A stretch of DNA of 64,000 nt from Myxococcales bacterium (GTDB lineage: Bacteria; Myxococcota; B64-G9). The stretch spans positions 15,362 to 79,361 of the forward strand of contig JAAZNF010000028.1 in the NCBI GenBank assembly GCA_012798435.1, in the 5' to 3' direction. Positions 33,449-46,060 of the stretch are shown in pieces. The translations under genes were made by a program, and so were the position numbers. The notes under the pieces are model-generated. The model did no database searches and was not told where the DNA came from. It was given only the letters and a program-made list of their open reading frames with translations. The first letter of the stretch is position 1. Each line of letters starts with the position of its first letter.

Positions 33449-33859
33449 TCAGCGCCAGGCGGCGGGCCGCGCCACCCGGAACACCCAGCCGCGCAGCAAC
33501 GGATAGGTGAAGCACACCCACACCAACGCCAGGCTCACCAGGTGCAACAGGCGGGGATCGCCGCCGGTGACCAGGCGCAGCAGCCACCAGGTCAGGGTGG
33601 CCAGGCTGACGGCCGAGAGCGCGGTCACGGCATAGCGGCCGGCCTGGCTCCACAACCCACCGCCGCATCCTTGGAACGCGAAGCGGCGGTTCAGGGTGAA
33701 GTTGCTCACCGCCCCGAGCGCCCCACACACCCAGCGGGCGACCAGCAGGGCTCTGCCGCCGGCCAGGAGCAGGGTGCACAGGCAGAACAACCCGGCGTCC
33801 ACGGCGGTCGAGAGCAAGCTCACCGACAGGCTTCGCAGGGTCAGGCGGCCCGGCGCCAT
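33449..33859 (-). CDS. GtrA-family small polytopic membrane protein (flippase-associated)
   Basis: 136 aa with four hydrophobic helices. FTLNRRFAFQG motif is typical of the GtrA family. The start overlaps the stop of the upstream deacetylase-like gene. Confidence 0.55.
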   Translation of the reverse strand: MAPGRLTLRSLSVSLLSTAVDAGLFCLCTLLLAGGRALLVARWVCGALGAVSNFTLNRRFAFQGCGGGLWSQAGRYAVTALSAVSLATLTWWLLRLVTGGDPRLLHLVSLALVWVCFTYPLLRGWVFRVARPAAWR

Positions 33860-34611
33860 GTCTCCCTCCAATCCGGGTACGTCACCTGAACGCGGGTTCT
33901 GAGCAACTCCCGGATGCGCGTAAGGATGTGCTCCACCGGCCGGGCACCGCGCAGGTCGGCCGGGTGCAGGGCTACCCGCACCAGCGTTGCCTCCCGGCCC
34001 CGTTCTTCGATGGCGCGCATGACCACGCGCTTGCCGTAGTCGATGGCCGGGTGCGCCGCGTCGAAGGTCAGCGCGGGCGAGGGCACCGATTCGGCGCCGC
34101 GAGCGCCGAACCACACGACCTTGTGGAGGAAGGCGGTGAATGAAAACCCCTCCGCCCATACCGCCGCGAGCGCCTCCGGGCTCTGGAGCCAGGCCGGCGC
34201 CACGAAACCTTCCGCGTGCAAACCGCAGGCCGCCAGGATGTGCCGGCCCCGCTGGAGCCGCTCGCTCGCCTGGGCGAAATTCAAATGGGCGAACTCGGCG
34301 CAGCCGCGGCTGAAGGCATGGTGGTAGAAGGCGTTGACCAGGCCCGGCGGTGGCGGATCGGGCGCCCGGTGGGTGAGCCCGTGCTGCACGATCTGCGCAC
34401 CCGCCTCCTGCTCGCGCCGCAGCCACTCGGCGAACCAGGGAGAAGAGCGCAGATCCCACCGGCGACCTCGCGCATCCTGCCAGCAGGGCACCACCAGCAG
34501 CGCCGGCCGATTCACCCCCAGGCGCAGAAGCCGCCAGCGCATCCACCGGACCTCCGGCTCGGAGGCAGGACTGACGTCGTGGATCTCCACGCTGAGGCCG
34601 AGCCGGGTCAT
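33841..34611 (-). CDS. DUF2334 / polysaccharide-deacetylase-like protein
   Basis: MTRLGLSVEIHDVSP...LLVVPCWQD...QHGLTHRAP...AEGFVAPAW pattern resembles the predicted-deacetylase DUF2334 family. Translationally coupled to GT2 upstream (CAT 34609-34611 against stop 34608). Confidence 0.55.
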   Translation of the reverse strand: MTRLGLSVEIHDVSPASEPEVRWMRWRLLRLGVNRPALLVVPCWQDARGRRWDLRSSPWFAEWLRREQEAGAQIVQHGLTHRAPDPPPPGLVNAFYHHAFSRGCAEFAHLNFAQASERLQRGRHILAACGLHAEGFVAPAWLQSPEALAAVWAEGFSFTAFLHKVVWFGARGAESVPSPALTFDAAHPAIDYGKRVVMRAIEERGREATLVRVALHPADLRGARPVEHILTRIRELLRTRVQVTYPDWRETWRRAA

Positions 34612-35429
34612 CGGGCACCTTCCAGGGCCAGAGTTTCCCAGGCGGCCAGGCGAAGCCGCAGCGCCTGCCGCATCGTCTCCAGGACGAGCTGCGCGACGTC
34701 CCGCCCGCCGATGTGGCTCCTGGAGACGCCGTAGCGGCAGCGGACAGACGCGGCGGCGGCCCGGATGTCGCGATCCTGCTCTCGCGAGTATTCGGCCAGC
34801 GCGGCCAGCGACTCGTGTTCGAGGGCGTATCGGCCCCGCTCGGGCAGGCGCTCGGAGAGCACGTCGGCCAGGCGCTTGCTATACAGGCGCAGGCCGGACT
34901 GCACGTCCCCGAAGTCCACACCGCCGATCCACGCGAAGCAGCGGTTGACCAGCCAGTTCGAGAGCCGGCGCTCGATCGGCATTTCGAGGCGCTCGCGCGC
35001 TCCGATCACCAGCTCGTAGCCCTGGCGCACGAGTTCGCACAGGCGCGGTAGATCCGCCGGATCGTGCTGGCCGTCGCCGTCGAGAAGGGCCACGGCGTCG
35101 AGGTCCATCGGACGCAGGACCTTCAAGCCGCGGCGGATCGAGCCCTGCTTTCCCAGGTTCACCTCGCATCGTTCCCAACACAGCGGCGTCCCGGTGCGGC
35201 AGCGAGCCTCCTCTCGCTCGAGGACCTCGATGGTGTCGTCGCTGGAGGCGTCGTCCACCACCAGGATCACCGAGGGCTCCACGGCCCGGCAGGCCCGGAT
35301 CACGTCCGGCAGGTGAGCGGCCTCGTTATAGGCCGGGATGAGCACGGCCAGGCGCAGGCCCGCGATCTTGGATGGCGCATCTTTCTCTTTGTGCTGCTGG
35401 GTACTGGAGATGACGGTGCAGCGAATCAT
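34608..35429 (-). CDS. Family-2 glycosyltransferase (GtrB/DPM1-like polyprenyl-phosphate sugar transferase)
   Basis: LAVLIPAYNEAAHLPDVI, VDDASSDDT, LLDGDGQHDP (DxD). RBS GGGAGGTGA before ATG 35427-35429. Confidence 0.8.
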   Translation of the reverse strand: MIRCTVISSTQQHKEKDAPSKIAGLRLAVLIPAYNEAAHLPDVIRACRAVEPSVILVVDDASSDDTIEVLEREEARCRTGTPLCWERCEVNLGKQGSIRRGLKVLRPMDLDAVALLDGDGQHDPADLPRLCELVRQGYELVIGARERLEMPIERRLSNWLVNRCFAWIGGVDFGDVQSGLRLYSKRLADVLSERLPERGRYALEHESLAALAEYSREQDRDIRAAAASVRCRYGVSRSHIGGRDVAQLVLETMRQALRLRLAAWETLALEGAR

Positions 35430-35726
35430 GATCACCTCCCTTGTGATGCGGCGCAAGCCGCGACGAATCACGAATTCAAGCCCCGTGCCACGGATGACGC
35501 GTCGCGTTGCCAAGATGGCATCGGGCTGTTTTGCCTTGGTTTTCTGACCTGGGAAAGCGGTCGGAATTCCGACCGGCGCTGCTCAGGTGCGAACGCGGTT
35601 GCCCAGATCGGCCCGGCACCGCAACCGGGCCTTCCGATTCGAGACGGTTTCATGGCGTGGATTGCCGCCGGCGACCGCCCCGTGCTAGATTGGCGCCCGG
35701 ACGGAAGAGGAAAAGGAGGCCTGGAC

Positions 35727-37088
35727 ATGAGCGGACGCTTCCTGTGCATTTCGATCGCGGCGCTCTCGCTATCGGTGTTCTCTTGCGACTCGTCGAGCGG
35801 CGTACGGCCGGTGAACTGCGAGCTCGACACGGATTGTCCCGAGGGCCAGGTGTGCAACCCCTACCGGGGAGTGTGCCTCACGGGCTGCCGCTCCCACGAA
35901 GAATGCCGCCGCGGCGAGATCTGCAACCCCTTCACCAGCCAGTGCATCATTGGCTGCCTCGAGTCCAGCGAGTGCCCCGCCGGGAAGATCTGCAGCGTCT
36001 TCACCGCGCAGTGCGTGCCGGGCTGCGACGAGGACGCCGACTGCCCGGAGGGCCAGCTGTGCAGCCCCATCACCGCGAGTTGCACAAACCCCTACACCCG
36101 CTGCCGCAGCGACGCCGACTGCCCCTCGGGCACCCGCTGCCAGGTGGAGAGCGGCGCCTGTCAGGTAGTGACGGTGGAGTGCACCGCGGACCGGGAGTGC
36201 CCGGTCGGCAAGCGCTGCCGTGACAACCTGTGCGTCACCGCCACCTGCGCCACCGACGCCGAGTGCCTCAACGGCGAGGAGTGTGAAAACGGCGTGTGCC
36301 AACCGCGCAGCGGCTGTATCACGGATTCCGAGTGCCTCAACGGCTTTCACTGCGAGAACGGGCAGTGCGTGGCCAACCCCGCCGGCTGCCAGCGCGACAG
36401 CGACTGCCCGCAAGGCCAGGTGTGCCAGGATGGCGACTGCGTGCCCGCGCAGACCGGCTGCACCCAGAACAGCGACTGCCCCGCGGGCCAGGTGTGCAAC
36501 CTGTTCACGCGCCAGTGCCAGGTGCAGAACACCGCCAACTGCCAGAGTGACGCCGACTGTCCGAGCGGGCTCACCTGCTCCTTCGGCTTCTGCACCGGTT
36601 GCTCATCCGCCACGGACTGCTTCCCCGGCCAGCAGTGCATCCTGGGGGCCTGCGTCGGCAACGCCACCACCACCTGCCAGACGGACGCCGACTGTCCCTC
36701 GGGCAAGCGCTGCCAGGACGGCCAGTGCGTCTCCGACAGCGGCTGCCAGAGCGACGCCGACTGCTCGTTCGGGCTCCAGTGCCAGTTCGGATTCTGCATC
36801 GGCTGCACCAGCGACGCCCAGTGCAAGCCCTCCGAGCAGTGCGTGCTGTACGCCTGCATCCCGCGCCTCGACAACCCCTGCGACAACGTGACCTGCCCGG
36901 CCGGCGAGCTGTGCGACCCGGAGAACGGCTCGTGCTACCCCGAGGACGGCACCTGCGTGGACGACACCGACTGCCGCGCCGGCCAGACCTGCAACGTCCT
37001 CCACTACTGCTCCGGCTGCCAGGCGGACGCCGACTGCCGCTCGGGCCAGCGCTGCGTCCTGCAGACCTGCATCCCCATCGGAGGCTGA
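35727..37088 (+). CDS. Cys-rich repeat lipoprotein (about 20 tandem [D/E]xDCPxGxxCxxxxxxC modules)
   Basis: RBS AAAAGGAGG. Lipobox MSGRFLCISIAALSLSVFSC. Repeats ELDTDCPEGQVCNPYRGVCLTGC / HEECRRGEICNPFTSQCIIGC / SSECPAGKICSVFTAQCVPGC and so on. The track ORF 35064.. is an upstream junk extension. Confidence 0.7.
   Translation: MSGRFLCISIAALSLSVFSCDSSSGVRPVNCELDTDCPEGQVCNPYRGVCLTGCRSHEECRRGEICNPFTSQCIIGCLESSECPAGKICSVFTAQCVPGCDEDADCPEGQLCSPITASCTNPYTRCRSDADCPSGTRCQVESGACQVVTVECTADRECPVGKRCRDNLCVTATCATDAECLNGEECENGVCQPRSGCITDSECLNGFHCENGQCVANPAGCQRDSDCPQGQVCQDGDCVPAQTGCTQNSDCPAGQVCNLFTRQCQVQNTANCQSDADCPSGLTCSFGFCTGCSSATDCFPGQQCILGACVGNATTTCQTDADCPSGKRCQDGQCVSDSGCQSDADCSFGLQCQFGFCIGCTSDAQCKPSEQCVLYACIPRLDNPCDNVTCPAGELCDPENGSCYPEDGTCVDDTDCRAGQTCNVLHYCSGCQADADCRSGQRCVLQTCIPIGG
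35800..37080 (+). repeat. Coding tandem repeat array (about 60-66 bp period) of Cys-rich modules
   Basis: Recurring gac tgc cc[n] [gag]gg[c] cag ... tgc codon pattern across the gene. Confidence 0.7.
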
Positions 37089-37284
37089 GGCGAACACCCG
37101 GCCCCCCGCTCGCGCAGAGGCGCGTTCTCGCACTTTTCACAACCCTGTGCCGCCGACCGCATGGGCCAACCACCGGGTGCAAAAGCGCGTCCGCGTGAAA
37201 GGGGAGCGTCTGACCGCCATGCCGCCAGAGCAAGCGCGGTCAGACGCGCACCTTGCTGCGGCCGAAGGTCGCGGCCGAAAACAT

Positions 37285-37569
37285 CTAGATGACAGGGCGG
37301 GGGATGCCGGACAGAGCCAGGTGCCAGCGCTCGCGACAGGTGGCGCACAGGCGAAAGACGCGCCTCTCGTGGACGCGGGCCTCCTCGGCGGCGATCTCGG
37401 CCTCGCCCATGGCGCGCAGCCGGTCGATGAGCTCGTCGAGCTCCGGCCGGCGGTCGCGCGCCAGGTCCTCTTCACTGAAAGACGGTGCCTCCGGCGCGGC
37501 GAAGAGCTCGACGCACAGCACGAAGGAACTCCAGGCGGCGACTTCTTGCCCGCATCCAGCGCAGCGCAT
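37285..37569 (-). CDS. Small zinc-ribbon-like protein (CxxC...CxxC), hypothetical
   Basis: MRCAGCGQEV...LCATCRERW has two CxxC pairs. GAGGAGGAGG lies 6 nt upstream of ATG 37567-37569. Surrounded by about 500 bp of non-coding DNA. Confidence 0.4.
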   Translation of the reverse strand: MRCAGCGQEVAAWSSFVLCVELFAAPEAPSFSEEDLARDRRPELDELIDRLRAMGEAEIAAEEARVHERRVFRLCATCRERWHLALSGIPRPVI

Positions 37570-37888
37570 GTGCGCCTCCTCCTCGAACACTGGAAAACAC
37601 CTTCTCGGGCATTTTTCAACCCTCGAATCCCGAGAATCTGACCGTACATCAGTTTTTTTTCCGACAATATTCTCTTCGGCGCGGCTGCTTAATGTCGGGT
37701 CCTCCTAACTGCTCGCCGCAGAGCCGGCTCCGCTGGATGGAGGACCCGCCTTGCGCGCCGCGCCACAACAAGTTCAACAATGCCTCAGTGGAATCATGGT
37801 ATATGTAAGGTACGATCAGCCCGAGAATGGCTTGTCCTGGGCCAGCAGGCGCGCTAGCATGGGCGCGGGTTGTCTCCGGAAGGTGCCG

Positions 37889-38878
37889 ATGGACCGCAGG
37901 AAGTTCTTGCAGACGCTCGGGCTGGCCTCCGCGGCCGCCGGACTCTCCAGCGCCGGCGCGGCCTGCGCCCGCTCCGCGGCCCAGAAGCCCGCCGGGGACG
38001 GCCGCAGCCGCGTGGCCCTGGTCACCGATCCCGGCGTGCGCCGGGGCGAGGAGATCGACGCAAAGCGCGTGGAACGATTGCTCCGGGCCACCCTCGAAAA
38101 GGCCCTGGGGAGCGCGAACCTGGCGGGCGTGCTTCCGGCGGACGAGGTGGTGGGCATCAAGCTCAACTGCCTGGCCGGCCGGCCGCTCTCCCCTGCTCTA
38201 CCGCTGGTCGAGGCCCTGATCAAAATCCTTTCAGACGCCGGCATCCCGCGCGAGCGGGTGATCGTGTTCGAGCGCGGCGAGCGCGATCTGCGCCGCGGCG
38301 GCTTCACCCCCGGCGAACACGACGGCGTCCGCTACCTGGGAAACGACAGCGCCGGCGCCGGCTACGAGGAGGAGCCCGAGATCTCCGGCCAGCTCGGCTC
38401 CTGCCTCTCCCGTATCCTCACCCGGCGCATCGGCGCCATGATCAACCTGGGCGTGCTCAAGGATCACAGCCTGGCAGGCCTGGGCGCGGGGACGAAGAAC
38501 CTCTACGGCCTCATCCACAACCCCAACAAGTACCACGACAACGGCTGCGACCCGTACCTGGCCGACCTGCTGGCCATGCCGGTGGTGCAGAAGAGGCTCT
38601 GCCTTACCATCCTGGACGGGCTCACCGCCCAGTGTCACGGCGGCCCCGGCTTTTCGCCCGCGCACGCCTGGTCATACAATAGCCTGCTGGCGAGCCGGGA
38701 CGTCATCGCGCTCGACCGGGTGGCCTGGGACGTCATCGAGGAGCGCCGCAAGCAGACCGGGCTTCCTCCGCTCGAGCGCGAGAACCGCGCCCCGCGCTGG
38801 TTGCGCACCGCTGCCTCGCGCGGCCTGGGCACCGACGAGATGATCCGCATCCTGGTGTTGCGCGAGGTGCTGTCGTGA
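37889..38878 (+). CDS. Tat-signal protein, DUF362-like (putative Fe-S / cofactor-binding) domain
   Basis: Twin-arginine motif MDRRKFLQTLGLASAAAGLSSAGAACA. RVALVTDPG...VVGIKLNCLAGRP...RVIVFER resembles DUF362. The stop overlaps the GTG of the next gene (GTGA). Confidence 0.6.
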   Translation: MDRRKFLQTLGLASAAAGLSSAGAACARSAAQKPAGDGRSRVALVTDPGVRRGEEIDAKRVERLLRATLEKALGSANLAGVLPADEVVGIKLNCLAGRPLSPALPLVEALIKILSDAGIPRERVIVFERGERDLRRGGFTPGEHDGVRYLGNDSAGAGYEEEPEISGQLGSCLSRILTRRIGAMINLGVLKDHSLAGLGAGTKNLYGLIHNPNKYHDNGCDPYLADLLAMPVVQKRLCLTILDGLTAQCHGGPGFSPAHAWSYNSLLASRDVIALDRVAWDVIEERRKQTGLPPLERENRAPRWLRTAASRGLGTDEMIRILVLREVLS

Positions 38879-40023
38879 AGCGGCGCGAGTTTTTTGCCCT
38901 GGGCGCCGCTCTGGGCGGCGGCCCCTGGCCTGCCACCGGCGCCGAACACCCGAGGAAAGACCCGCCGCGGGGCGGCACGACGCTGGCGCTGGACGGGGAG
39001 CGCCAGTTCTGGCGCGAGGCGGCCCATTACCAGAAACTCCCGGAGTCCAGGGTGGAGTGCCGCCTGTGCCCGCGCCGCTGCCAGGTGGCGGACCAGGAGA
39101 ACGGCTGGTGCGGCGTGCGCCTGAACGAGCGCGGCACCTACTACACCACCGTATTCGGCCGCCCGGTGACCATCGCCAACGATCCCATCGAGAAGAAGCC
39201 GCTGTTCCACTATAAGCCCGGCTCGCTCACCCTGTCGCTGGCCACCGCCGGCTGCAACTTCGAGTGCCTGTTCTGCCAGAACTGGGAGATCTCCCAGTTC
39301 CGCCCGGAACAGATCCCGGCCCGCTACGGCTTCGTCTCCCCCGAGGACCTGGTCGAGCTCGCGAAGCGCCAGGGCTCGCGCTCGCTTTCGTTCACCTACG
39401 CCGAGCCGGTGGTGTTCTTCGAGTACGCGCTGGCCACCGCGCGCGCTTCCAAGGCGGCCGGCCTCCCGGGCGTGATGATCAGCAACGGCTTCATCGAATC
39501 CGCACCCATGGACGAACTGCTCCAGGAGCTCGGCGCGGTCAAGATCGACTTCAAGGCCTTTGACGACAAGTTCTACCAGCGCCAGTGTCGCGGCACGCTG
39601 GAGCCGGTGCTGCGCACCATGGAGCGAATCCGCAAAGCCGGGGTGTGGCTCGAGCTGGTCCACCTCACCGTCCCCACCCTGAACGACGACGCCGAGCAGG
39701 CGAAGCGCCTGTGCGGTTGGGTCCTGGAGAAGCTCGGGCCCGACGTGCCGGTGCACTTCACCCGCTTCCACCCCACCTACAAGCTCAAGAATCTGCCGGC
39801 CACGCCGCCGGCGACGCTGGAGCGCCAGTACGACATCGCCCGCAAGGCCGGCCTGCGCTACGCCTACCTGGGCAACCTGCCCGGACACGAGGGCGAAAAC
39901 ACCCGCTGCCACGGCTGCCGCGAGACGCTCATCCGGCGGGTGGGCTTCACCGTGCTGGAGAACCGCCTCCGGGAGGGGAAGTGCCCGAAGTGCGGCGAGA
40001 AGATCCCCGGCGTGTGGAGCTGA
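38875..40023 (+). CDS. Radical SAM enzyme, AmmeMemoRadiSam (AmrS)-like, with unusual N-terminal twin-arginine-like extension
   Basis: CNFECLFCQNWEIS is a CxxxCxxC radical-SAM cluster motif. N-proximal VECRLCPRRCQVADQENGWCGVR and C-terminal CHGCRE...CPKCGE Cys clusters are typical of AmrS/PflA-like activases. The N-terminal 45 aa MKRREFFALGAALGGGPWPATGAEH look like a Tat signal. Confidence 0.8.
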   Translation: MKRREFFALGAALGGGPWPATGAEHPRKDPPRGGTTLALDGERQFWREAAHYQKLPESRVECRLCPRRCQVADQENGWCGVRLNERGTYYTTVFGRPVTIANDPIEKKPLFHYKPGSLTLSLATAGCNFECLFCQNWEISQFRPEQIPARYGFVSPEDLVELAKRQGSRSLSFTYAEPVVFFEYALATARASKAAGLPGVMISNGFIESAPMDELLQELGAVKIDFKAFDDKFYQRQCRGTLEPVLRTMERIRKAGVWLELVHLTVPTLNDDAEQAKRLCGWVLEKLGPDVPVHFTRFHPTYKLKNLPATPPATLERQYDIARKAGLRYAYLGNLPGHEGENTRCHGCRETLIRRVGFTVLENRLREGKCPKCGEKIPGVWS

Positions 40024-40025
40024 CC

Positions 40026-41096
40026 ATGCGCCTCCCCTGGCTCGTCGGGGTGGGAGCGCTGCTGCTTTCTTGCTGCTCTCGAGCGAGCCCGGACCTCCCC
40101 CAGCGCCTCATCATCGACTCGCACGTCCATCTATCGCCCGACCCGGAGTCGGTCGAGCGCGCCCTGCGCATCTTCGAGCGCAACGGCATCGGCCGCTTCT
40201 GCGTAAAGAGCGCCGGCCATTTCGGCTCGTCCCGCTTTCGCGCGACGCTGGAGCTGAAACGCAGGCTCGGCGACCGCCTGGCCTTCTTCAGCAACCCCGA
40301 CTTTGGCGGAGTGGACCGGCCCGACTTCGGCGAGGGCCTGGCCAAGAACCTGGAGGCCGCCGTGCGCGCCGGGGCGCGCGGCATCAAGATCTTCAAGGCG
40401 CTGGGGCTCTACGTGCGCCGGGCCGACGGCACGCTGCTCGCCCCGGACGATCCCGCCCTGGAGCCGCTGTGGCAGAAGGCCGGCGAGCTCGGCGCCATCG
40501 TGGCCTGGCACGTGGCCGATCCGCGGGCGTTCTTCCAGGCCCCCACTCCCGACAACGAGCGCTACCTCGAGCTGTTGTTCGCGCCGGGCTGGGGGTTCTA
40601 CGGCAAGGACTTCCCCGCCTTCGACACGCTGCTTGCCGCCGCCGAGCGGGTCATCGCCGCGCACCCCAAGACCACCTTCCTGCTCATCCACCTCGGCTGC
40701 GACGCCGAGAACCTCGAGCACGTCGACCGCATGCTGCGGGCCTACCCCAACCTCTACACCGACACCTCGGCGCGCGTGCCCGAGTTCGGCCGCCACCCGG
40801 CCGAGGCGGTGCGCGAGTTCTTCCTGCGCCACCAGGACCGCATTCTGTTCGGCTCCGACATCTTGATCGGGCCGGGCGAGCTGCAGCTCGGCTCGCTCTC
40901 CATCTGGCCAGACACCGACGAGGACGCGGACGTCTTCTACCGGGCACACCGGGAGTACTTCGAGACCGACCACAAGGCGCTGGCCACACCCACCCCCATC
41001 CAGGGCGCCTGGCGCATCGACGGCATCCACCTCCCCGAGGAGGTGCTGGAGAAACTCTACGTGAAGAACGCCGAGCGACTCATCTGGAAGCAATGA
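40026..41096 (+). CDS. Amidohydrolase-family (TIM-barrel metal-dependent hydrolase) lipoprotein
   Basis: ATG 3 nt after the radical-SAM stop. Lipobox MRLPWLVGVGALLLSCCS. IIDSHVHLSPD metal-binding HxH. Conserved H and D later (LIHLGCD, FGSDILIGP). Confidence 0.75.
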   Translation: MRLPWLVGVGALLLSCCSRASPDLPQRLIIDSHVHLSPDPESVERALRIFERNGIGRFCVKSAGHFGSSRFRATLELKRRLGDRLAFFSNPDFGGVDRPDFGEGLAKNLEAAVRAGARGIKIFKALGLYVRRADGTLLAPDDPALEPLWQKAGELGAIVAWHVADPRAFFQAPTPDNERYLELLFAPGWGFYGKDFPAFDTLLAAAERVIAAHPKTTFLLIHLGCDAENLEHVDRMLRAYPNLYTDTSARVPEFGRHPAEAVREFFLRHQDRILFGSDILIGPGELQLGSLSIWPDTDEDADVFYRAHREYFETDHKALATPTPIQGAWRIDGIHLPEEVLEKLYVKNAERLIWKQ

Positions 41097-41297
41097 GCCG
41101 TGGCACCCTGGCCGATCGCACAGCGGCCGAGCCCCCTCTCCGCTGCACCGCTCCCCCCTCTCCTCTATGGCTGTCTCTCAGTCACATTTCTAGGCGTCGC
41201 CTCCGCCCGACCTATACCGTCAAGGGTTTTCAATCGCTTCGCGACTCGCTGCGCTCGCCCTTGACGGCGGTCGGGCTTCGGCTGAAATCGCAATTGT

Positions 41298-41321
41298 GAA
41301 GAGCATGCAGGCATGCTCTTC
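41298..41321. repeat. Perfect 11-bp inverted repeat GAAGAGCATGC-ag-GCATGCTCTTC in convergent intergenic region
   Basis: Read directly. There is no downstream T-tract. A related GCATGCTC-containing hairpin (GAGGAGC...GCTCCTC) sits at 23108-23134 after another convergent gene end. Confidence 0.5.
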
Positions 41322-41474
41322 CTGCTCGAGGAAGACCCATTTCATTCAATCGAACGCCTGGTCGCGGGGCCACGGGAGCCAGCGCGACCTGGCGAAGGCG
41401 AACGCCGCCAACGCGGGCCCATAACGATACAAGTTAAAACAGGTTGGGCGGTGGTCGCCGGAGCGATGGCGGGG

Positions 41475-44400
41475 CTACTTGCGCCGCTTGATGCCGAGCA
41501 GGGACAGGCCGAGCAGCATGAGCAGGCCCGAGCCGCCGGAGGCTCCGGTGCCACACCCGCAGCCGCCGCCGCTGGTCTCCTCCTTGGGGCAGGCGACCTG
41601 GTCGTCGCTGTCGGTCAGCCCGTCGCAGTTGTTGTCGAGCTGATCGCCGCAGATCTCGGCGGTGTTCGGGTGCACGCCCTGGCGGGTGTCGTCGCAGTCG
41701 TTGCCGCAGGGCGGTTTCGCGTAGCCGTCGCCGTCGTCGTCGGGACAGAGGCAGTTCTTCTCGCGGCACTCCTGCCCGTTGCCGCACTCGATGCCGCAGC
41801 GGCCGCAGTTGGCCTCGTCGCTGGTGAGGTCCGCCTCGCAACCGTTGGCGGTCTGCCCGTCGCAGTTGCCGAAGTCGGCCTCGCAGCGGGTGATGACGCA
41901 GGCGGAGGCGTCGCAGGCCGACACCGCGTGCGCGAGGGCGCAGGAGGTGCCGCAGGCGCCGCAGTTCTGGGCGTCGCTGCGGGTGTCGACCTCGCAGCCG
42001 TCAGCCGCGTCACCGTTGCAGTCGGCGTAGCCGATGTCGCAGCTTCCCACCACGCACTGGCCCAGGTGGCAAGCAGCGGTGGCGTGCGATAGCCGGCATA
42101 AAACCCCGCAGGCGCCGCAGTTCTGGGCGTCCTCACCGGTGTGCACCTCGCAGCCGTCGGCGAGCGCGTGGTTGCAGTCGGTCCAGCCCTCGTCGCAAGC
42201 GGCGATGCCGCAGTAGCCACCGACGCAGTTGGCGGTGGCGTGCGCCGCTTCGCAGCGCCTGCCGCAGCTCCCGCAGTTCTCGGGATCGGTGCGGTAGTTG
42301 CTTTCGCAACCATCGGCCGGGTCGTTGTTGCAGTTGTTGAAGCCGCCGATGCAGCGATCGAGCTGGCACTGCCCACCCACGCACAGCGCCGAGGCGTTGG
42401 CGAAGGTGCAGGCATTGCCGCACTGGCCACAGTTTTCCGGATCCGAGCCTACCAGCGACTCACAGCCGTTGAAACCGGCCCCGTCGCAGTTGCCCCAACC
42501 CGTGGCGCAGGAGTCGATGGCGCAGTCCACGCCCTCGCAGTGCCCGGTGGCGTGGGGCAGACTGTTGCAGGTGCGGCCGCAAGCGCCGCAGTTCGCCGGA
42601 TCGTCCACCACCGGCTGCTCGCAGCCGTTGGCGGCCGCATGGTCGCAGTCGCCCCAACCCACCTCGCAGCTCGCCACCCGGCACTCGCCCGCCGCGCAAC
42701 CGGCGCTGGCGTGGTCGAGCGTGCACACGTTGCCGCACGAACCGCAGTTCTGCGGATCGGTGCTGGTCTGGACCTCGCATCCGTCGGACGGGCTGTCGTT
42801 GCAGTTGGCATATCCGCTGGCGCAGTTCCCCAACTCGCAGGTGCCGTTGTTGCACACGCCCGAGGCATGGTCGTAGGTGCAGGCGCTGCCGCAGGCGCTG
42901 CAGTGCTGGGCGCTCGAGGTGAGGTCGGTCTCGCAGCCGTTGGTGGCCACGCCGTCGCAATCGCCCCAGCCGGCCAGACAGCTCGTGCCGGGCTGGCATG
43001 TGCCACCGACGCACTGGCTGTCCATGTGCGGGTAGCCGCACACCACACCGCAACCACCGCAGTTGTCGACGTCGCTCTGGACCGAGGCCTCGCAACCGTT
43101 CGCCGGCAGACCGTCGCAGTCGCCGTAGCCGGCCTCGCAGGCACCGAGACAGGCGCGCACCATGTCGATGGTGAAGCCGTCGTAGGCGACCGAGCTGTCG
43201 CTGGTGAAGTTCACCTTCACGGTCGAGCCGGGGACGTTCGGCGACCAGAAGGGCTCGTACTGCCCGGTATAGGTCGCGATCTCGGAATCGTTACCGTCGA
43301 GCACGCGCACGAAGTCCCAGTTGCGCTCGACGTTGAGCATCGAGAAATGCACCGACATCACGCTGGCGCCGGGCCGGGTGATGGTCCAGGTGTTGTTGTA
43401 GTTGTGAGGATAGGGGTGTGGCGACTGCACGTCCTCTGCGCTGTCCTGGCAGGTGGAGGGGTAACACACGCCGTCGATACAGGAGTGACCGGTGGCGTGC
43501 GGCAGGTTGCACACGTTTCCGCAGGTGCCGCAGTTCTGCACGTCGGCGGTGACGTCCCGCTCACAACCGTTTCCGACGTTGCCATCGCAGTCGCCCCAAC
43601 CCGCCTCGCAGGTGCCGACGGTGCACTGGCCGCCGGCGCAGCCGCCGCTGCCGTGGGGCACCGGCCCGCAGGTGGGGTTGCCGCAGCCGGTCAGGCCGCA
43701 GTTCTGCGGGTCGATGAGCGGGTTGCTCTCGCAACCATCGGCAAAGTCGTTGTTGCAGTCGAACCAGCCGCTCTCGCAACCGGCCACCTGGCACATGCCG
43801 GCCACGCACTGGTTGACGGCGTGCGGGGCGGCGCAGGCGTGGCCGCACCAGCCGCAGTTCTGTGTGCTGCTTGCGGTGTTCGTCTCGCAGCCGTCGGGGC
43901 CGGTGGCGGGATCGTCGTCGCAGTCGCCCAGGCCCGGCGGGCAGCGCCCGGCGTCGCACCAGGTGATCGCATCGGCCACGAAACCGTTTCGGTTCACCGA
44001 GCTGTCGCTGGTGAGCCGCAGCTTGATGGTGTTTCCGGTCACCACGGGAGTGCTGAAGGCGCCCAGCGCACCCGAGTAGCTCGCCACCTCGACGTCGTTG
44101 GCGTCCAGCACGTGCACGAAGTCGTACCCCTGCTCGGTGTCGAAGGACGCAAAGTGTACCCCGATCACCACCGCGCCCGGCTGGGTGATGGTCCAGGTGT
44201 AGTCGAAGTTGTCGGCGTAGGGGTGAGCGCTCTCCACCACGGGGTTGAGCGCCGTCTGGTTGACCGCGACGACGCGGGCCCGGTCGGGGTTGGAGATGAG
44301 GCCGGTCGAGTCGGTCACGGTGAGGATGCCCTGGTACTCGCCGCACACGTCGGCGTCGAAGGTCGGCGCCGGAGCGGTCGTGCTGGAGAGGACGGCCGAG

Positions 44401-45968
44401 CTGTTCGCCGGGCGGTAGAACTGCCACTCGTGGGAGATGGGATCGCCGTTGGGGTCGAACGAGTGCGAGCCGTCCAGGGTCACGTGGGTGCCGGTGGGCA
44501 CGGTCTGGTTGCCGCCGGCCAGCGCCACCGGGGGCAGCGGCACGCCCGAGATGGCCTGCAAGGCTCGAAGGGCGTTCACCCGGCCGCCGCTGACGCACCG
44601 TCCCTGGAGGTCGGCCACCGGGTCGATGGTGCCGATGAGGGTGTTCTTTACCTGGAGCATGTCGAGGTCGGGCCGGATGGAGAACATGAGCGCGCACAGG
44701 CCCGCCACGTGCGGGGTGGCCATGGAGGTGCCGGACATGAGATCGTAGCCACCGCCCGGCCAGATGGTGGAAAGGATGTCCTCGCCTGGAGCGCCCACGT
44801 CCACCGTCACCAGGCCGTAGTTGGAAAAGCTGGCCTTCTGGTCGGTGTGGGTGGTGGCCGCCACCGCAATGATGTTGTCGTAGGGCCAAGAGCTGGGCCA
44901 GTGCATGGTGGAGGGGTCGTCGGTGTCCTTGCCGATGCCGTCGGGGTAACCGTTGCCGGCGGCCGCCACCAGGATGACGCCCATGCTGTTCGCGTAGGCG
45001 ACGGCGTTCTCCAGCGTCTGGCTATAGTGCTGCACCGTCCACCAGGAGCAGCTCATGACGCGAGCGCCGTTGTCCACCGCGTAGTGGATGGCCTCGGCGG
45101 CGTCCACGCAGTAGTCCTCGAGCTCCTGGTTGCCGATGATACGCAGGGGCATGATGGTGACGCGCCAGTTGACGCCCGCCACGCCCAGGCTGTTGTTGCC
45201 GACCGCGCCGATGATGCCCGAGCAGTGCGTGCCGTGACCGTAGTCGTCCATGGGGTCGTTGGTCTGGTGCTCGAAGTCCCAGCCGCGCACGTCGTCGATG
45301 TAGCCGTTGTTGTCGTCGTCGATGCCGTTGCCCGCGATCTCGTCCGCGTTCGTCCACATGTTGGCGGCGAGGTCCGGGTGGGTGTAGTCCACGCCGGTGT
45401 CCAGCACCGCCACCACCACGTCGTAGGAGCCGATGGAGATGTCCCAGGCCTCGGGGGCATCGATGTCGGCGTCGGGGGTCCCGCCGGTCTGGCCGGTGTT
45501 GTTCATGCCCCAGTCCTCGGAGTAGCGGGGATCGTTGGGGGTGTTGAGCAGGCGGATCTTCCAGTTGGGCTCGGCATAGGCCACGCGCGGATCGCGGGCG
45601 ATGCGCCGGGCTGCCTCTTCGGGGGTCTCCTTGCTCGAGAGACCCATGCGGTACAGGTCCAGGGGCTTGCGGTACTCGACCACCGACAGCCCGAGGCTTT
45701 TGGCGATGGAGGCGGCCGAGAGGCGGTCCACGCCGGCGCGGAACTTCACCACCACCACGCCCGGCTCGTAGGGAATCCAGTTGGGATCATCCGGATACTG
45801 AATGGGCGGCCGGTGCTCGAGGGCGACCGACTTTTCCGGCGCCGCCTTGGCCGCGCTCTCGGCCTGCAGGCCGGAGGAGCTTTGCGCCACGTCGGCGCCG
45901 CCCTGGCAGGCTGCCATTATAACCCCTAGACCAAACACCCATGCCCCGGCCAACCCTGACTTCTTCAT
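41475..45968 (-). CDS. Giant secreted subtilisin-like serine protease (peptidase S8) with Cys-rich repeat domains and MYXO-CTERM anchor
   Basis: Signal MKKSGLAGAWVFGLGVIMAAC (ATG 45966-45968). S8 catalytic triad segments VVAVLDTGVDYTHPDL (Asp), HGTHCSGIIGA (His), GTSMATPHVAG (Ser). Many CxxCxxxC / NCGxCG repeats. C-terminal GGGCGCGTGASGGSGLLMLLGLSLLGIKRRK. The antisense 1262-aa ORF is rejected. Confidence 0.85.
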   Translation of the reverse strand: MKKSGLAGAWVFGLGVIMAACQGGADVAQSSSGLQAESAAKAAPEKSVALEHRPPIQYPDDPNWIPYEPGVVVVKFRAGVDRLSAASIAKSLGLSVVEYRKPLDLYRMGLSSKETPEEAARRIARDPRVAYAEPNWKIRLLNTPNDPRYSEDWGMNNTGQTGGTPDADIDAPEAWDISIGSYDVVVAVLDTGVDYTHPDLAANMWTNADEIAGNGIDDDNNGYIDDVRGWDFEHQTNDPMDDYGHGTHCSGIIGAVGNNSLGVAGVNWRVTIMPLRIIGNQELEDYCVDAAEAIHYAVDNGARVMSCSWWTVQHYSQTLENAVAYANSMGVILVAAAGNGYPDGIGKDTDDPSTMHWPSSWPYDNIIAVAATTHTDQKASFSNYGLVTVDVGAPGEDILSTIWPGGGYDLMSGTSMATPHVAGLCALMFSIRPDLDMLQVKNTLIGTIDPVADLQGRCVSGGRVNALRALQAISGVPLPPVALAGGNQTVPTGTHVTLDGSHSFDPNGDPISHEWQFYRPANSSAVLSSTTAPAPTFDADVCGEYQGILTVTDSTGLISNPDRARVVAVNQTALNPVVESAHPYADNFDYTWTITQPGAVVIGVHFASFDTEQGYDFVHVLDANDVEVASYSGALGAFSTPVVTGNTIKLRLTSDSSVNRNGFVADAITWCDAGRCPPGLGDCDDDPATGPDGCETNTASSTQNCGWCGHACAAPHAVNQCVAGMCQVAGCESGWFDCNNDFADGCESNPLIDPQNCGLTGCGNPTCGPVPHGSGGCAGGQCTVGTCEAGWGDCDGNVGNGCERDVTADVQNCGTCGNVCNLPHATGHSCIDGVCYPSTCQDSAEDVQSPHPYPHNYNNTWTITRPGASVMSVHFSMLNVERNWDFVRVLDGNDSEIATYTGQYEPFWSPNVPGSTVKVNFTSDSSVAYDGFTIDMVRACLGACEAGYGDCDGLPANGCEASVQSDVDNCGGCGVVCGYPHMDSQCVGGTCQPGTSCLAGWGDCDGVATNGCETDLTSSAQHCSACGSACTYDHASGVCNNGTCELGNCASGYANCNDSPSDGCEVQTSTDPQNCGSCGNVCTLDHASAGCAAGECRVASCEVGWGDCDHAAANGCEQPVVDDPANCGACGRTCNSLPHATGHCEGVDCAIDSCATGWGNCDGAGFNGCESLVGSDPENCGQCGNACTFANASALCVGGQCQLDRCIGGFNNCNNDPADGCESNYRTDPENCGSCGRRCEAAHATANCVGGYCGIAACDEGWTDCNHALADGCEVHTGEDAQNCGACGVLCRLSHATAACHLGQCVVGSCDIGYADCNGDAADGCEVDTRSDAQNCGACGTSCALAHAVSACDASACVITRCEADFGNCDGQTANGCEADLTSDEANCGRCGIECGNGQECREKNCLCPDDDGDGYAKPPCGNDCDDTRQGVHPNTAEICGDQLDNNCDGLTDSDDQVACPKEETSGGGCGCGTGASGGSGLLMLLGLSLLGIKRRK

Positions 45969-46060
45969 GCGTGTCTCCTTCTCTTCATAAGGATTTTCTG
46001 CCCTCGCCCTTATTGAGCTTCTATCCACATTCCACCCCCATGGACAAGAGAAATCTTTTT

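Follow-up and report, generated by a model that had tools for sequence, protein, structure and literature searches.

A DUF362-AmrS gene pair with twin-arginine signals in a Myxococcales bacterium, the probable core of an export-signal-bearing AmmeMemoRadiSam variant

The AmmeMemoRadiSam system was defined computationally and comprises three proteins, each with an NCBIfam model: AmrA/AMMECR1 (TIGR04335), AmrB/Memo (TIGR04336) and the radical SAM enzyme AmrS (TIGR04337). We know of no settled molecular function for Memo or AMMECR1, both of which have human homologues. Burroughs et al. (2019, JBC) reportedly proposed that the system modifies nucleotide bases or isoprenoids. To our knowledge, radical SAM enzymes are regarded as strictly cytoplasmic, and no extracytoplasmic location is known to us; the reason lies in their requirement for SAM, for a low-potential reductant and for shelter from oxygen. 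An earlier proposal assigned RNA base modification to AmmeMemoRadiSam (PMC2034487).

We analyzed a locus of three genes that lie head to tail on the forward strand of the window (the whole 64-kb stretch of DNA under study) and encode, in order, a DUF362 protein (g1), a radical SAM enzyme (g2) and a PF04909 amidohydrolase (g3). Their features are as follows.

37889..38878, forward strand: g1, DUF362 protein of 329 aa (PF04015)
37889..37975, forward strand: predicted twin-arginine signal of g1, MDRRKFLQTLGLASAAAGLSSAGAACARS (TIGR01409)
38875..38878, forward strand: GTGA start/stop overlap of g1 and g2, read directly from the sequence
38875..40023, forward strand: g2, AmrS-family radical SAM enzyme of 382 aa (TIGR04337)
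38875..39018, forward strand: 48-aa N-terminal extension of g2 with a Tat-like signal, MKRREFFALGAALGGGPWPATGA, and a linker, outside the TIGR04337 model
39253..39276, forward strand: radical SAM cluster motif C127-N-F-E-C131-L-F-C134, with three invariant Cys columns
40026..41096, forward strand: g3, lipoprotein amidohydrolase of 356 aa, PF04909 TIM barrel
40026..40073, forward strand: predicted lipoprotein signal of g3, MRLPWLVGVGALLLSC, with lipobox Cys16

The genes start with ATG (g1, GGAAGG upstream), GTG at 38875 (g2, with a Shine-Dalgarno-like GAGGTG 6-11 nt upstream) and ATG (g3, GGAG upstream). The first-pass annotation of this DNA had described coupling by a GTGA overlap and a 3-nt gap. 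The overlap is present, and the same coupling of DUF362 and AmrS genes recurs in three related loci (L001, L007 and L178), but the spacing between g2 and g3 is 2 nt ('cc'). Its view that the genes form one operon agrees with the overlap, the 2-nt gap and the tight spacing, and the pair and g3 are probably co-transcribed in this Myxococcota lineage.

The AmrS-like character suggested for g2 was borne out by an HMM search, in which the protein scored 357.1 bits against TIGR04337 (cutoff 220) over residues 51-381, and 70 bits against PF04055. We aligned 107 homologues drawn from many phyla, with identities of 50-94%, and every one (107/107) matched TIGR04337. Three groups of cysteines are invariant among them: C127-x3-C131-x2-C134 of the radical SAM motif, an N-terminal group (C62, C65, C69 and C79) and a C-terminal group (C345, C348, C370 and C373). 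As a separate matter, we rejected g2 as a glycyl-radical activase, since it scored 45.4 bits against TIGR02493 (cutoff 231.75) and 33.7 against TIGR02494 (cutoff 174.35).

Ahead of the AmrS domain, g2 begins with MKRREFFAL followed by a Gly/Pro-rich hydrophobic stretch. The extension with a near-consensus twin-arginine motif had been noticed before; we find it to be about 48 aa long, and the motif is kept far beyond the lineage. Neither R3 nor R4 varies in alignments of 24 and of 107 sequences, and the remainder of the extension is not conserved. RR-bearing AmrS proteins occur in Deltaproteobacteria/Myxococcota, Planctomycetota (Brocadia, Scalindua), Acidobacteriota, Thermoanaerobaculales and others, and clustering of the top 150 representatives at 50% identity gave at least 30 separate Tat-type clusters. 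The Tat model TIGR01409 was matched by 24 of 52 AmrS homologue N-termini. The N-terminus of g2 itself did not match this model; its signal is weak, with a Gly/Pro-rich h-region and no clean AxA site.

The g1 protein scored 63 bits against PF04015 (DUF362), above the Pfam gathering score, and its AF2 model (pLDDT 92.8) has a predicted fold that is LarA-like. The Tat motif reported for this protein stands: the N-terminus, MDRRKFLQ, passes TIGR01409 with 17.6 bits (cutoff 16.7), and RR is found in 106/120 DUF362 homologues, the remaining ones appearing N-terminally truncated. Throughout the closest DUF362 clade a position-conserved Cys follows the RR by about 20-23 residues. The lipobox of g1 is non-canonical at position -3, and the conserved Cys that ends the signal may mark a Tat-lipoprotein.

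The DUF362 gene is a conserved upstream partner specific to Tat-type AmrS. It adjoins AmrS in 33/76 Tat-type loci vs 0/78 other AmrS loci. When the comparison was restricted to loci with enough upstream DNA, DUF362 lay directly upstream in 26 of 59 Tat-type loci and in 0 of 56 others (Fisher p = 1e-9).

Many related loci also couple the DUF362/Tat-AmrS pair to a Memo-AMMECR1 (AmrB-AmrA) fusion that carries a Sec or lipoprotein signal (L178, L014, L021, L022, L024, L027, L033, L037, L038, L041, L043, L044 and L051). For instance, in L178 the genes for AmrB-AmrA, DUF362 and AmrS form a fully overlapping operon; the fusion scored 221 bits against TIGR04336 and 173 bits against TIGR04335, and both models begin only after the first 30 aa or so, which form a signal peptide. 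Signal-like N-termini were found on 30/31 AmrB-AmrA fusions that adjoin signal-bearing AmrS. By sequence these appear to be cleavable signals of the classical Sec or lipoprotein type, and they stop immediately ahead of the conserved Memo N-terminus. Conversely, one signal-less AmrS is paired with a signal-less fusion (L081). Two further signal-less AmrS proteins (L089 and L072) apparently have signal-bearing AmrB-AmrA, which counts against a reading in terms of export.

AmrS also occurs as part of larger proteins. Single-chain AmrS-Memo-AMMECR1 fusions exist, and other AmrS domains are fused to FMN_bind and Fer4_5 (NosR-like), DsbD_2, CBM_11 or a beta-propeller, each with N-terminal transmembrane segments ahead.

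Given these family memberships, conserved signals, linkages and fusions, we consider it probable that g1 and g2 represent the conserved two-gene core of a previously undescribed, export-signal-bearing variant of AmmeMemoRadiSam found in many phyla. The locus in the window would be a reduced copy of that variant. The conserved Tat signals on AmrS and DUF362 suggest that an iron-sulfur radical system acts outside the cytoplasm, and the literature that could be searched gave no earlier account of an exported radical SAM arrangement.

We tentatively propose a truly extracytoplasmic AmmeMemoRadiSam, a reading that we regard as possible and hold with less than even confidence. DUF362, with its LarA-like fold, and AmrS would fold and load their cofactors in the cytoplasm, which for AmrS means the radical SAM [4Fe-4S] cluster together with two additional 4-Cys sites. 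Tat would then move both across the membrane in folded form, and AmrB-AmrA, where present, would follow the Sec route. Once on the outer side of the cytoplasmic membrane, AmrS would reductively cleave SAM and take hydrogen from an envelope substrate; candidates are a partner protein and a lipid-like molecule that AmrB-AmrA handles. DUF362 would be an accessory that the exported form of AmrS cannot do without. Membrane redox modules like those fused to AmrS relatives (DsbD-like, FMN_bind, NosR-like) would pass electrons to the enzyme. Several points count against export. About 20 AmrS relatives have Sec-like, not Tat-like, N-termini, which are hard to square with iron-sulfur cluster loading. 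Myxococcota are mostly aerobes, and in them a [4Fe-4S] radical SAM enzyme would be endangered if exposed. We also know of no periplasmic source of SAM or of low-potential electrons.

Alternatively, the RR-hydrophobic N-termini could be uncleaved anchors or Tat-independent targeting helices. AmrS (and, by analogy, DUF362) would then stay on the inner side of the membrane, with SAM and reductants at hand and a membrane lipid or isoprenoid as substrate. SAM and ferredoxin/flavodoxin are indeed cytoplasmic, the g2 signal fails TIGR01409, and some relatives have plain hydrophobic N-termini. One relative (P0398) has its positive charges after the transmembrane segment, so the anchor could leave its domains in the cytoplasm. 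The NosR-like fusions have KR or KK, not RR, before the last transmembrane segment, and their topology is suggestive at most. In NosR and NapH the polyferredoxin end is cytoplasmic, and an AmrS domain behind such a polyferredoxin would be cytoplasmic too if one predicted transmembrane segment were false. However, an invariant RR ahead of an h-region of moderate hydrophobicity and then small residues is the signature of a Tat substrate rather than of a plain anchor, and DUF362 passes the Tat model. Moreover, the partner AmrB-AmrA proteins carry classical cleavable Sec or lipoprotein signals, and the CBM_11 and propeller fusions of AmrS follow a single N-in transmembrane segment. We therefore consider an inner-face location unlikely.

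More doubtful still is a dedicated three-enzyme pathway in which DUF362, AmrS and the amidohydrolase replace AmrA and AmrB, for example to mature or modify an exported substrate for subsequent processing by the hydrolase. The amidohydrolase scored 75.2 bits against PF04909 (cutoff 26.4), and its AF2 model has a pLDDT of 93.5. The best Foldseek match in the PDB is 2,6-dihydroxybenzoate decarboxylase (2dvt, E 1.6e-9, TM about 0.5), and ACMSD-type enzymes are also among the matches (E ~1e-9, TM about 0.5). In an alignment of 57 homologues, D31, S32 and H33 do not vary and H35 scarcely does, which we take to be a putative N-terminal metal motif of the HxH type. The lipobox assigned to this protein is well founded: Cys16 is invariant in the 57 homologues, whose N-termini show a hydrophobic stretch and then a Cys, and g3 is by these sequence features a conserved, predicted Myxococcota lipoprotein.

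The gene arrangement gives such a pathway some support, since the three genes are joined by the GTGA overlap and the 2-nt gap with a Shine-Dalgarno-like motif before each, all three proteins bear export signals, and the triad is kept in relatives of 84-94% identity (L001-3, L007 and L096). The range ends there, and a conserved triad is not supported by the neighborhood comparison: g3 accompanies the pair in no relative below 84% identity, and g3 homologues were absent from all of the roughly 150 other AmrS loci. The g3 homologues of 60-61% identity have neither a DUF362 nor a radical SAM gene nearby. L181 has the amidohydrolase in front of the convergent fervidolysin-like S8 protease that also follows it in the window; this suggests that amidohydrolase and protease go together and that the pair was brought next to them. 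In addition, DUF362-AmrS pairs elsewhere link to AmrB-AmrA. The amidohydrolase is a lineage-specific neighbor, not a conserved partner, and we judge the three-enzyme pathway improbable.

The first-pass annotation was right that AmrA and AmrB are missing locally, as we found no Memo or AMMECR1 ORF in the 64-kb window. Its idea of a separate system working without them is not supported, because the same pair is coupled to an AmrB-AmrA fusion in related genomes. It had also allowed that the locus might be a rearrangement if AmrA and AmrB lay adjacent in relatives; they do so at the related loci named above (for instance L178), but AmrB-AmrA is not within 3 kb of 11/17 well-flanked DUF362-AmrS pairs, so local absence is common and not peculiar to this locus. 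In the NJ order, the subclade of the window lies inside the Tat clade, beside loci that have both DUF362 and AmrB-AmrA. The fusion may truly be missing from this genome.

That the extension is an annotation artefact, left untranslated in an ordinary cytoplasmic AmrS with a downstream start, is hardly credible: the start is a GTG, high-GC genomes yield long spurious upstream ORFs and the upstream part of the g2 ORF is indeed non-coding for g2, but the GTG at 38875 has the Shine-Dalgarno-like GAGGTG 6-11 nt upstream, there is no ATG, GTG or TTG start between codon 1 and codon 60, the next in-frame one (V60, 39052) would delete the conserved block of residues 46-59, so that the extension is forced, the equivalent start in the 94% identical L001 is an ATG, and RR is invariant in 107 homologues. 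The shorter start that had been suggested as a check is thus absent before V60, and orthologues keep the RR.

If the extracytoplasmic reading is true, this would be, as far as we know, the first radical SAM system in the periplasm, with SAM supplied by a novel route or pre-loaded for a single turnover. Together, Tat-AmrS, Tat-DUF362, Sec-Memo-AMMECR1 and the fusions to electron modules would make extracytoplasmic radical chemistry directly testable. A location in the bacterial envelope would argue against RNA modification, at least for this form, and would point to membrane or envelope substrates for Memo and AMMECR1. For the DUF362 family, the linkage to AmrS offers a first specific genomic context.

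Compared with AmmeMemoRadiSam as described, the likeness lies in g2, well over the TIGR04337 cutoff, and in the coupling of AmrS to AmrB-AmrA at related loci. The differences are the export signals on all components of this variant, a fourth protein (DUF362) specific to the Tat-type form, and the absence of AmrA and AmrB from this window; an extracytoplasmic location would also not fit the RNA-modification proposal. The nearest characterized radical SAM relatives are the activases PFL-AE and NrdG, which have the CX3CX2C core in common with g2, and PFL-AE alone was matched by g2 in PDB sequence searches (E 2e-5). Activases act on protein substrates, which makes them a plausible model, by analogy, for AmrS acting on AmrA or AmrB. 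The activases are cytoplasmic; AmrS differs from them in carrying further 4-Cys motifs on its N- and C-terminal sides, and no glycyl-radical enzyme lies near g2.

Hydrogenase small subunits and Rieske proteins are Tat-exported cofactor proteins, and NosR/NapH and DsbD/CcdA are transmembrane electron conduits. The variant resembles the former in having twin-arginine signals on proteins that need cytoplasmic cofactor uptake, and the latter through the AmrS relatives fused to FMN_bind/Fer4_5 (NosR-like) or DsbD_2. We are not aware of any radical SAM enzyme with demonstrated Tat export, nor of SAM as a metabolite of the periplasm. DUF362 shares the Pfam clan CL0471 with the LarA/DUF2088 nickel-pincer-nucleotide racemases (PMC11770544). 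Sequence identity between g1 and LarA is just 11-15%, g1 spans about half the length of a LarA chain and, unlike LarA, has a Tat signal; no PDB chain was matched by g1 as a single sequence or as a profile. Finally, the HXS antiphage system (PMC13128918) likewise ties radical SAM chemistry to a periplasmic function; as described, the enzyme matures an effector that acts in the periplasm, whereas here the enzyme itself has the signal.

The radical SAM gene lies between the genes for a DUF362 protein and a lipoprotein amidohydrolase (g1, g2 and g3, in order):

37889..38878, plus strand: g1, DUF362 protein; ATG start, SD-like GGAAGG ahead; PF04015 family by Pfam, 63 bits
38875..40023, plus strand: g2, radical SAM (AmrS) protein; GTG start, SD-like GAGGTG ahead; Pfam 70 bits
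40026..41096, plus strand: g3, Amidohydro_2 protein; ATG start, SD-like GGAG ahead; Pfam 75 bits

All three starts are preceded by an SD-like purine-rich motif, and the GTG start of g2 overlaps the stop codon of g1 as GTGA. The spacing between the g2 stop and the g3 ATG is 2 nt, which corrects the 3 nt of the first-pass annotation. On its 5' side g1 is flanked by an intergenic region of ~300 bp with lower GC. A consensus scan of 37200..41500 revealed no convincing internal promoter or terminator, only weak intragenic matches. The assignment of g2 as an AmrS-type enzyme was borne out: it is a member of the NCBIfam family TIGR04337, scoring 357 bits where the cutoff is 220, and the NCBIfam glycyl-radical activase models all scored far under their cutoffs. 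A PDB sequence search gave no match for g1, a g1 profile or g3.

The twin-arginine (RR) extension at the N-terminus of g2 depends on the start codon being correct. The TIGR04337 alignment begins only at residue 51. From the GTG start onward, no further ATG, GTG or TTG occurs until codon 60, and initiation at V60 would cost the conserved REAxxYxKL block that immediately precedes the first invariant Cys. Furthermore, a 94%-identical relative (L001) has an ATG at the position of the g2 GTG. A relative of 94% identity is present in the MAG GCA_964561025.1. A shorter in-frame start is thus very unlikely. At least 103 of the 120 best g2 homologues (52-94% identity) start with an RR motif, after which come a hydrophobic stretch and small residues; most of the others seem N-terminally truncated. 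By their labels, these homologues come from Deltaproteobacteria, Planctomycetes (Brocadia, Scalindua), Glassbacteria, Thermoanaerobaculales and further groups; Tat-type AmrS is encoded in Kuenenia too. R3 and R4 of g2 do not vary in alignments of either 24 or 107 homologues, and sequence conservation is absent from the other positions of the first 45 residues, the pattern expected for a signal peptide. The extension is therefore genuine and conserved among homologues.

As a stand-in for a Tat predictor, we scanned the N-terminal 48-mers of 52 sequences against NCBIfam. TIGR01409 matched 24 of them (best E 4e-5) and a formate-dehydrogenase Tat model matched six, but the N-terminus of g2 itself (KRREFFAL, with a Gly/Pro-rich h-region) had no TIGR01409 match. 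Judged from these sequences, the Tat-like signal is a feature of the family, of which the g2 copy is a weak example. It is also widespread: among 1.84 billion representatives of 50%-identity clusters we retrieved 1440 relatives at E <= 1e-30, and the Tat type accounts for at least 30 distinct clusters among the top 150.

We gathered ~180 loci from assemblies, one scan of a genome collection and one metagenome scan, and examined their six-frame ORFs with phmmer and jackhmmer. The metagenome scan with g2 returned only three close relatives; the further loci, included in the census, are more distant. A heuristic classification of N-termini assigns 76 of the 154 non-redundant AmrS-like loci to a Tat-like and 20 to a Sec- or TM-like class; the other 58 have no extension. 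Of the 76 Tat-like loci, 33 have a DUF362 gene directly upstream; none of the 78 others does. When the count is limited to AmrS-type loci whose upstream DNA spans 1.2 kb or more, the figures are 26/59 versus 0/56 (Fisher p = 1e-9), and in a neighbor-joining (NJ) ordering all DUF362-linked AmrS proteins fall within one Tat clade. DUF362 is a specific partner of Tat-type AmrS. Other loci, including L045, L048, L050, L052, L058 and L074 (Omnitrophota, Elusimicrobia, Auribacterota and Chlamydiae MAGs), encode an AmrS with a classical Sec-like N-terminus, in which MKK is followed by 15-20 strongly hydrophobic residues and RR is absent; there DUF362 is never present and a Sec-signal AmrB-AmrA often is.

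The DUF362 protein carries a Tat motif of its own. The g1 N-terminus (MDRRKFLQ) scores 17.6 bits with TIGR01409, above the cutoff of 16.7, and RR occurs in 106 of the 120 best g1 homologues, the remainder seeming truncated. Every member of the closest clade of g1 has a Cys ~20-23 residues past the RR, which hints at a Tat-lipoprotein, though the lipobox is non-canonical. This DUF362 subfamily is not covered by an NCBIfam model of its own. Pfam clan CL0471 unites DUF362 with the N-terminal domain of LarA (PMC11770544).

In the AmmeMemoRadiSam system AmrS is accompanied by AmrA (AMMECR1, TIGR04335) and AmrB (Memo, TIGR04336). The first-pass annotation reported both as missing beside g2, and indeed the 64-kb window contains no Memo or AMMECR1 ORF. 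Relatives tell more. Two loci (L178/L179) have a fully overlapping operon in the order Memo-AMMECR1 fusion (499 aa), DUF362 (339 aa, 49% identical to g1) and AmrS (376 aa, 53% identical to g2). With TIGR04336 the L178 and L014 fusions reach 221 bits, and with TIGR04335 (cutoff 99) 173 and 138 bits; the matches begin at residue 31 or 21, past a classical signal peptide. Fusion, DUF362 and AmrS genes also adjoin in L014, L021, L022, L024, L027, L033, L037, L038, L041, L043, L044 and L051. Of 17 loci that combine DUF362 with Tat-AmrS and have 5 kb or more of flanking DNA on each side, only six have AmrBA within 3 kb, so local absence, as in the window, is frequent. In the NJ ordering the window groups with L010, L016, L097, L004, L015, L008, L007 and L001, a subclade that adjoins L014, L021 and L037, which have both partners. 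Adjacency of AmrA and AmrB in related genomes, which had been named as evidence against a distinct arrangement, holds for L178/L179, L014 and others, and no member of the window's own subclade shows it.

The fusions bear signals of their own. By eye, their N-termini are typical Sec or lipoprotein signals that stop just ahead of the conserved Memo start (for example, MKSLLLLSLLCVAINGWA then DFRPPAV), and by a heuristic count signal-like N-termini occur in 30 of the 31 fusions that adjoin a signal-bearing AmrS. In two Bacteroidales loci (L081 and L090) AmrS lacks the extension and the fusions begin directly at the Memo core; L089 and L072 are apparent exceptions. The signals are split between pathways, Tat for the cofactor-bearing AmrS and DUF362 and Sec for the other components. 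Such a division would be expected of a system that is really exported. The main rival explanation is that AmrS is tethered to the membrane yet faces the cytoplasm; the Sec-like N-termini on ~20 AmrS proteins and the weak signal of g2 sit poorly with the export reading, which would also call for a source of SAM outside the cell.

Long AmrS proteins bear on this topology. We surveyed 42 representatives of >430 aa. AMMECR1 is present in 20 and Memo in 17 of them; these are single-chain AmrS-AmrBA proteins, which confirms the system. FMN_bind occurs in five, Fer4_5 (NosR/NapH type) in three and DsbD_2 in three, with CBM_11 and a Reg_prop/PorZ-like propeller as one-off domains. Intein-splicing and LAGLIDADG domains are found in three AmrS representatives of this length, whose radical SAM genes appear to be intein-interrupted. 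The arrangements are as follows:

P0365, P0370: N-terminal TM, FMN_bind, several TM segments with Fer4_5, AmrS
P0379: DsbD_2 ahead of the P0365/P0370 arrangement
P0374, P0387: DsbD_2, then AmrS
P0366, P0369: single N-terminal TM, carbohydrate-binding (CBM_11) or beta-propeller domain, AmrS

FMN_bind is an extracytoplasmic domain. By a simple hydropathy count, FMN_bind is separated from AmrS by six TM segments in P0365 and P0379, and five were detected in P0370; an even number would leave AmrS outside. The final TM segment lies 25-40 residues ahead of the AmrS core, as does the signal in stand-alone forms. Dual Sec/Tat insertion of the NosR-like fusions was considered and rejected, as KR, KK or RK rather than RR precede the last TM segment. 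Because of these residues, and because the positive charges of P0398 lie past its single TM segment, the topology of AmrS in the fusions is suggestive only. The redox fusions plausibly represent an electron route for AmrS at or beyond the membrane.

The family of g3 is a large set of lipoproteins from Myxococcota and Deltaproteobacteria, in which Cys16 and a D-S-H motif (D31, S32, H33) do not vary among 57 sequences and H35 hardly does. The structure model of g3 is a TIM barrel of the amidohydrolase superfamily (pLDDT 93.5), distantly similar to ACMSD-type decarboxylases/hydrolases (Foldseek E 1.6e-9, TM ~0.5, 12-17% identity). A g3 homologue follows the DUF362-AmrS pair only in L001-3 (94%), L007 and L096 (84%) and in no other census locus, and no DUF362 or radical SAM gene occurs near the 60-61% homologues, which lie on long contigs. 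The three genes had been proposed as one unit; co-transcription is likely, and a shared pathway is unsupported. g3 is a neighbor, not a conserved partner. Downstream of it the window encodes a convergent protease:

41475..46115, minus strand: fervidolysin-like S8 protease, 1546 aa; PKD domain, two CUB domains, many MXAN_6577-like/MopE Cys-rich repeats

At its C-terminus, GGCGCG precedes a hydrophobic stretch and KRRK; this resembles a MYXO-CTERM sorting tag, although no HMM supported the match. The protease was rejected as a general partner of the module: adjacency was seen in the window and in L001, L010 and L176, only 3 of 154 loci, and we read it as Myxococcota synteny with no general link. 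In L181 (Myxococcota) the g3 homologue is followed, like g3 in the window, by a convergent fervidolysin-like S8/PKD/CUB protease. Most simply, the amidohydrolase-protease neighborhood came first and the DUF362-AmrS pair was later put ahead of it.

L010, L176 and L178 may share one syntenic site, since a spermine-synthase-like gene (750-780 aa) occurs in all three and an AlaRS gene in L010 and L176. The module differs among them:

L010, 6001..7131: S8, then AmrS
L176, 7001..7993: S8, then DUF362 and a 217-aa protein
L178, 5505..9147: AmrBA, then DUF362 and AmrS

These differing subsets suggest that the module is undergoing reshuffling or erosion in these lineages. Upstream of g1, the window encodes:

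33449..35513, minus strand: three-gene run of GtrA-like, DUF2334 and family-2 glycosyltransferase genes
35064..37088, plus strand: myxobacterial Cys-rich repeat protein; TIGR04201 105 bits, weak TraA-like and DUF7107 matches
37285..37590, minus strand: 101-aa ORF with paired CxxC (CAGCG ... CATCRERW), divergent from g1

The three-gene run is syntenic with L007, where it lies upstream of the triad; its DUF2334 gene is a weak match for GlcNAc-phosphatidylglycerol deacetylase, reaching 110 bits where 280 is the cutoff. The true start of the Cys-rich repeat ORF is probably a lipobox-bearing Met (MSGRFLCISIAALSLSVFSC) ~225 codons in. The 101-aa ORF has no family match.

The best-supported interpretation is that g1-g2 represents one instance of a widespread AmmeMemoRadiSam variant, so far undescribed, with an export signal on every component, that DUF362 is an added, Tat-specific component of it, and that in the window's lineage an unrelated lipoprotein hydrolase has become the gene downstream of the pair, with AmrB-AmrA not nearby. 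The components of the variant would be exported, AmrS would act by radical chemistry on a substrate in the envelope, and DUF362 may serve as an accessory of the exported AmrS. Neither Tat-type AmrS nor its link to DUF362 is described in the searchable literature, a scope outside which Burroughs et al. 2019 falls. The locus itself is a reduced example that points to a clade-wide feature surprising for radical SAM specialists.
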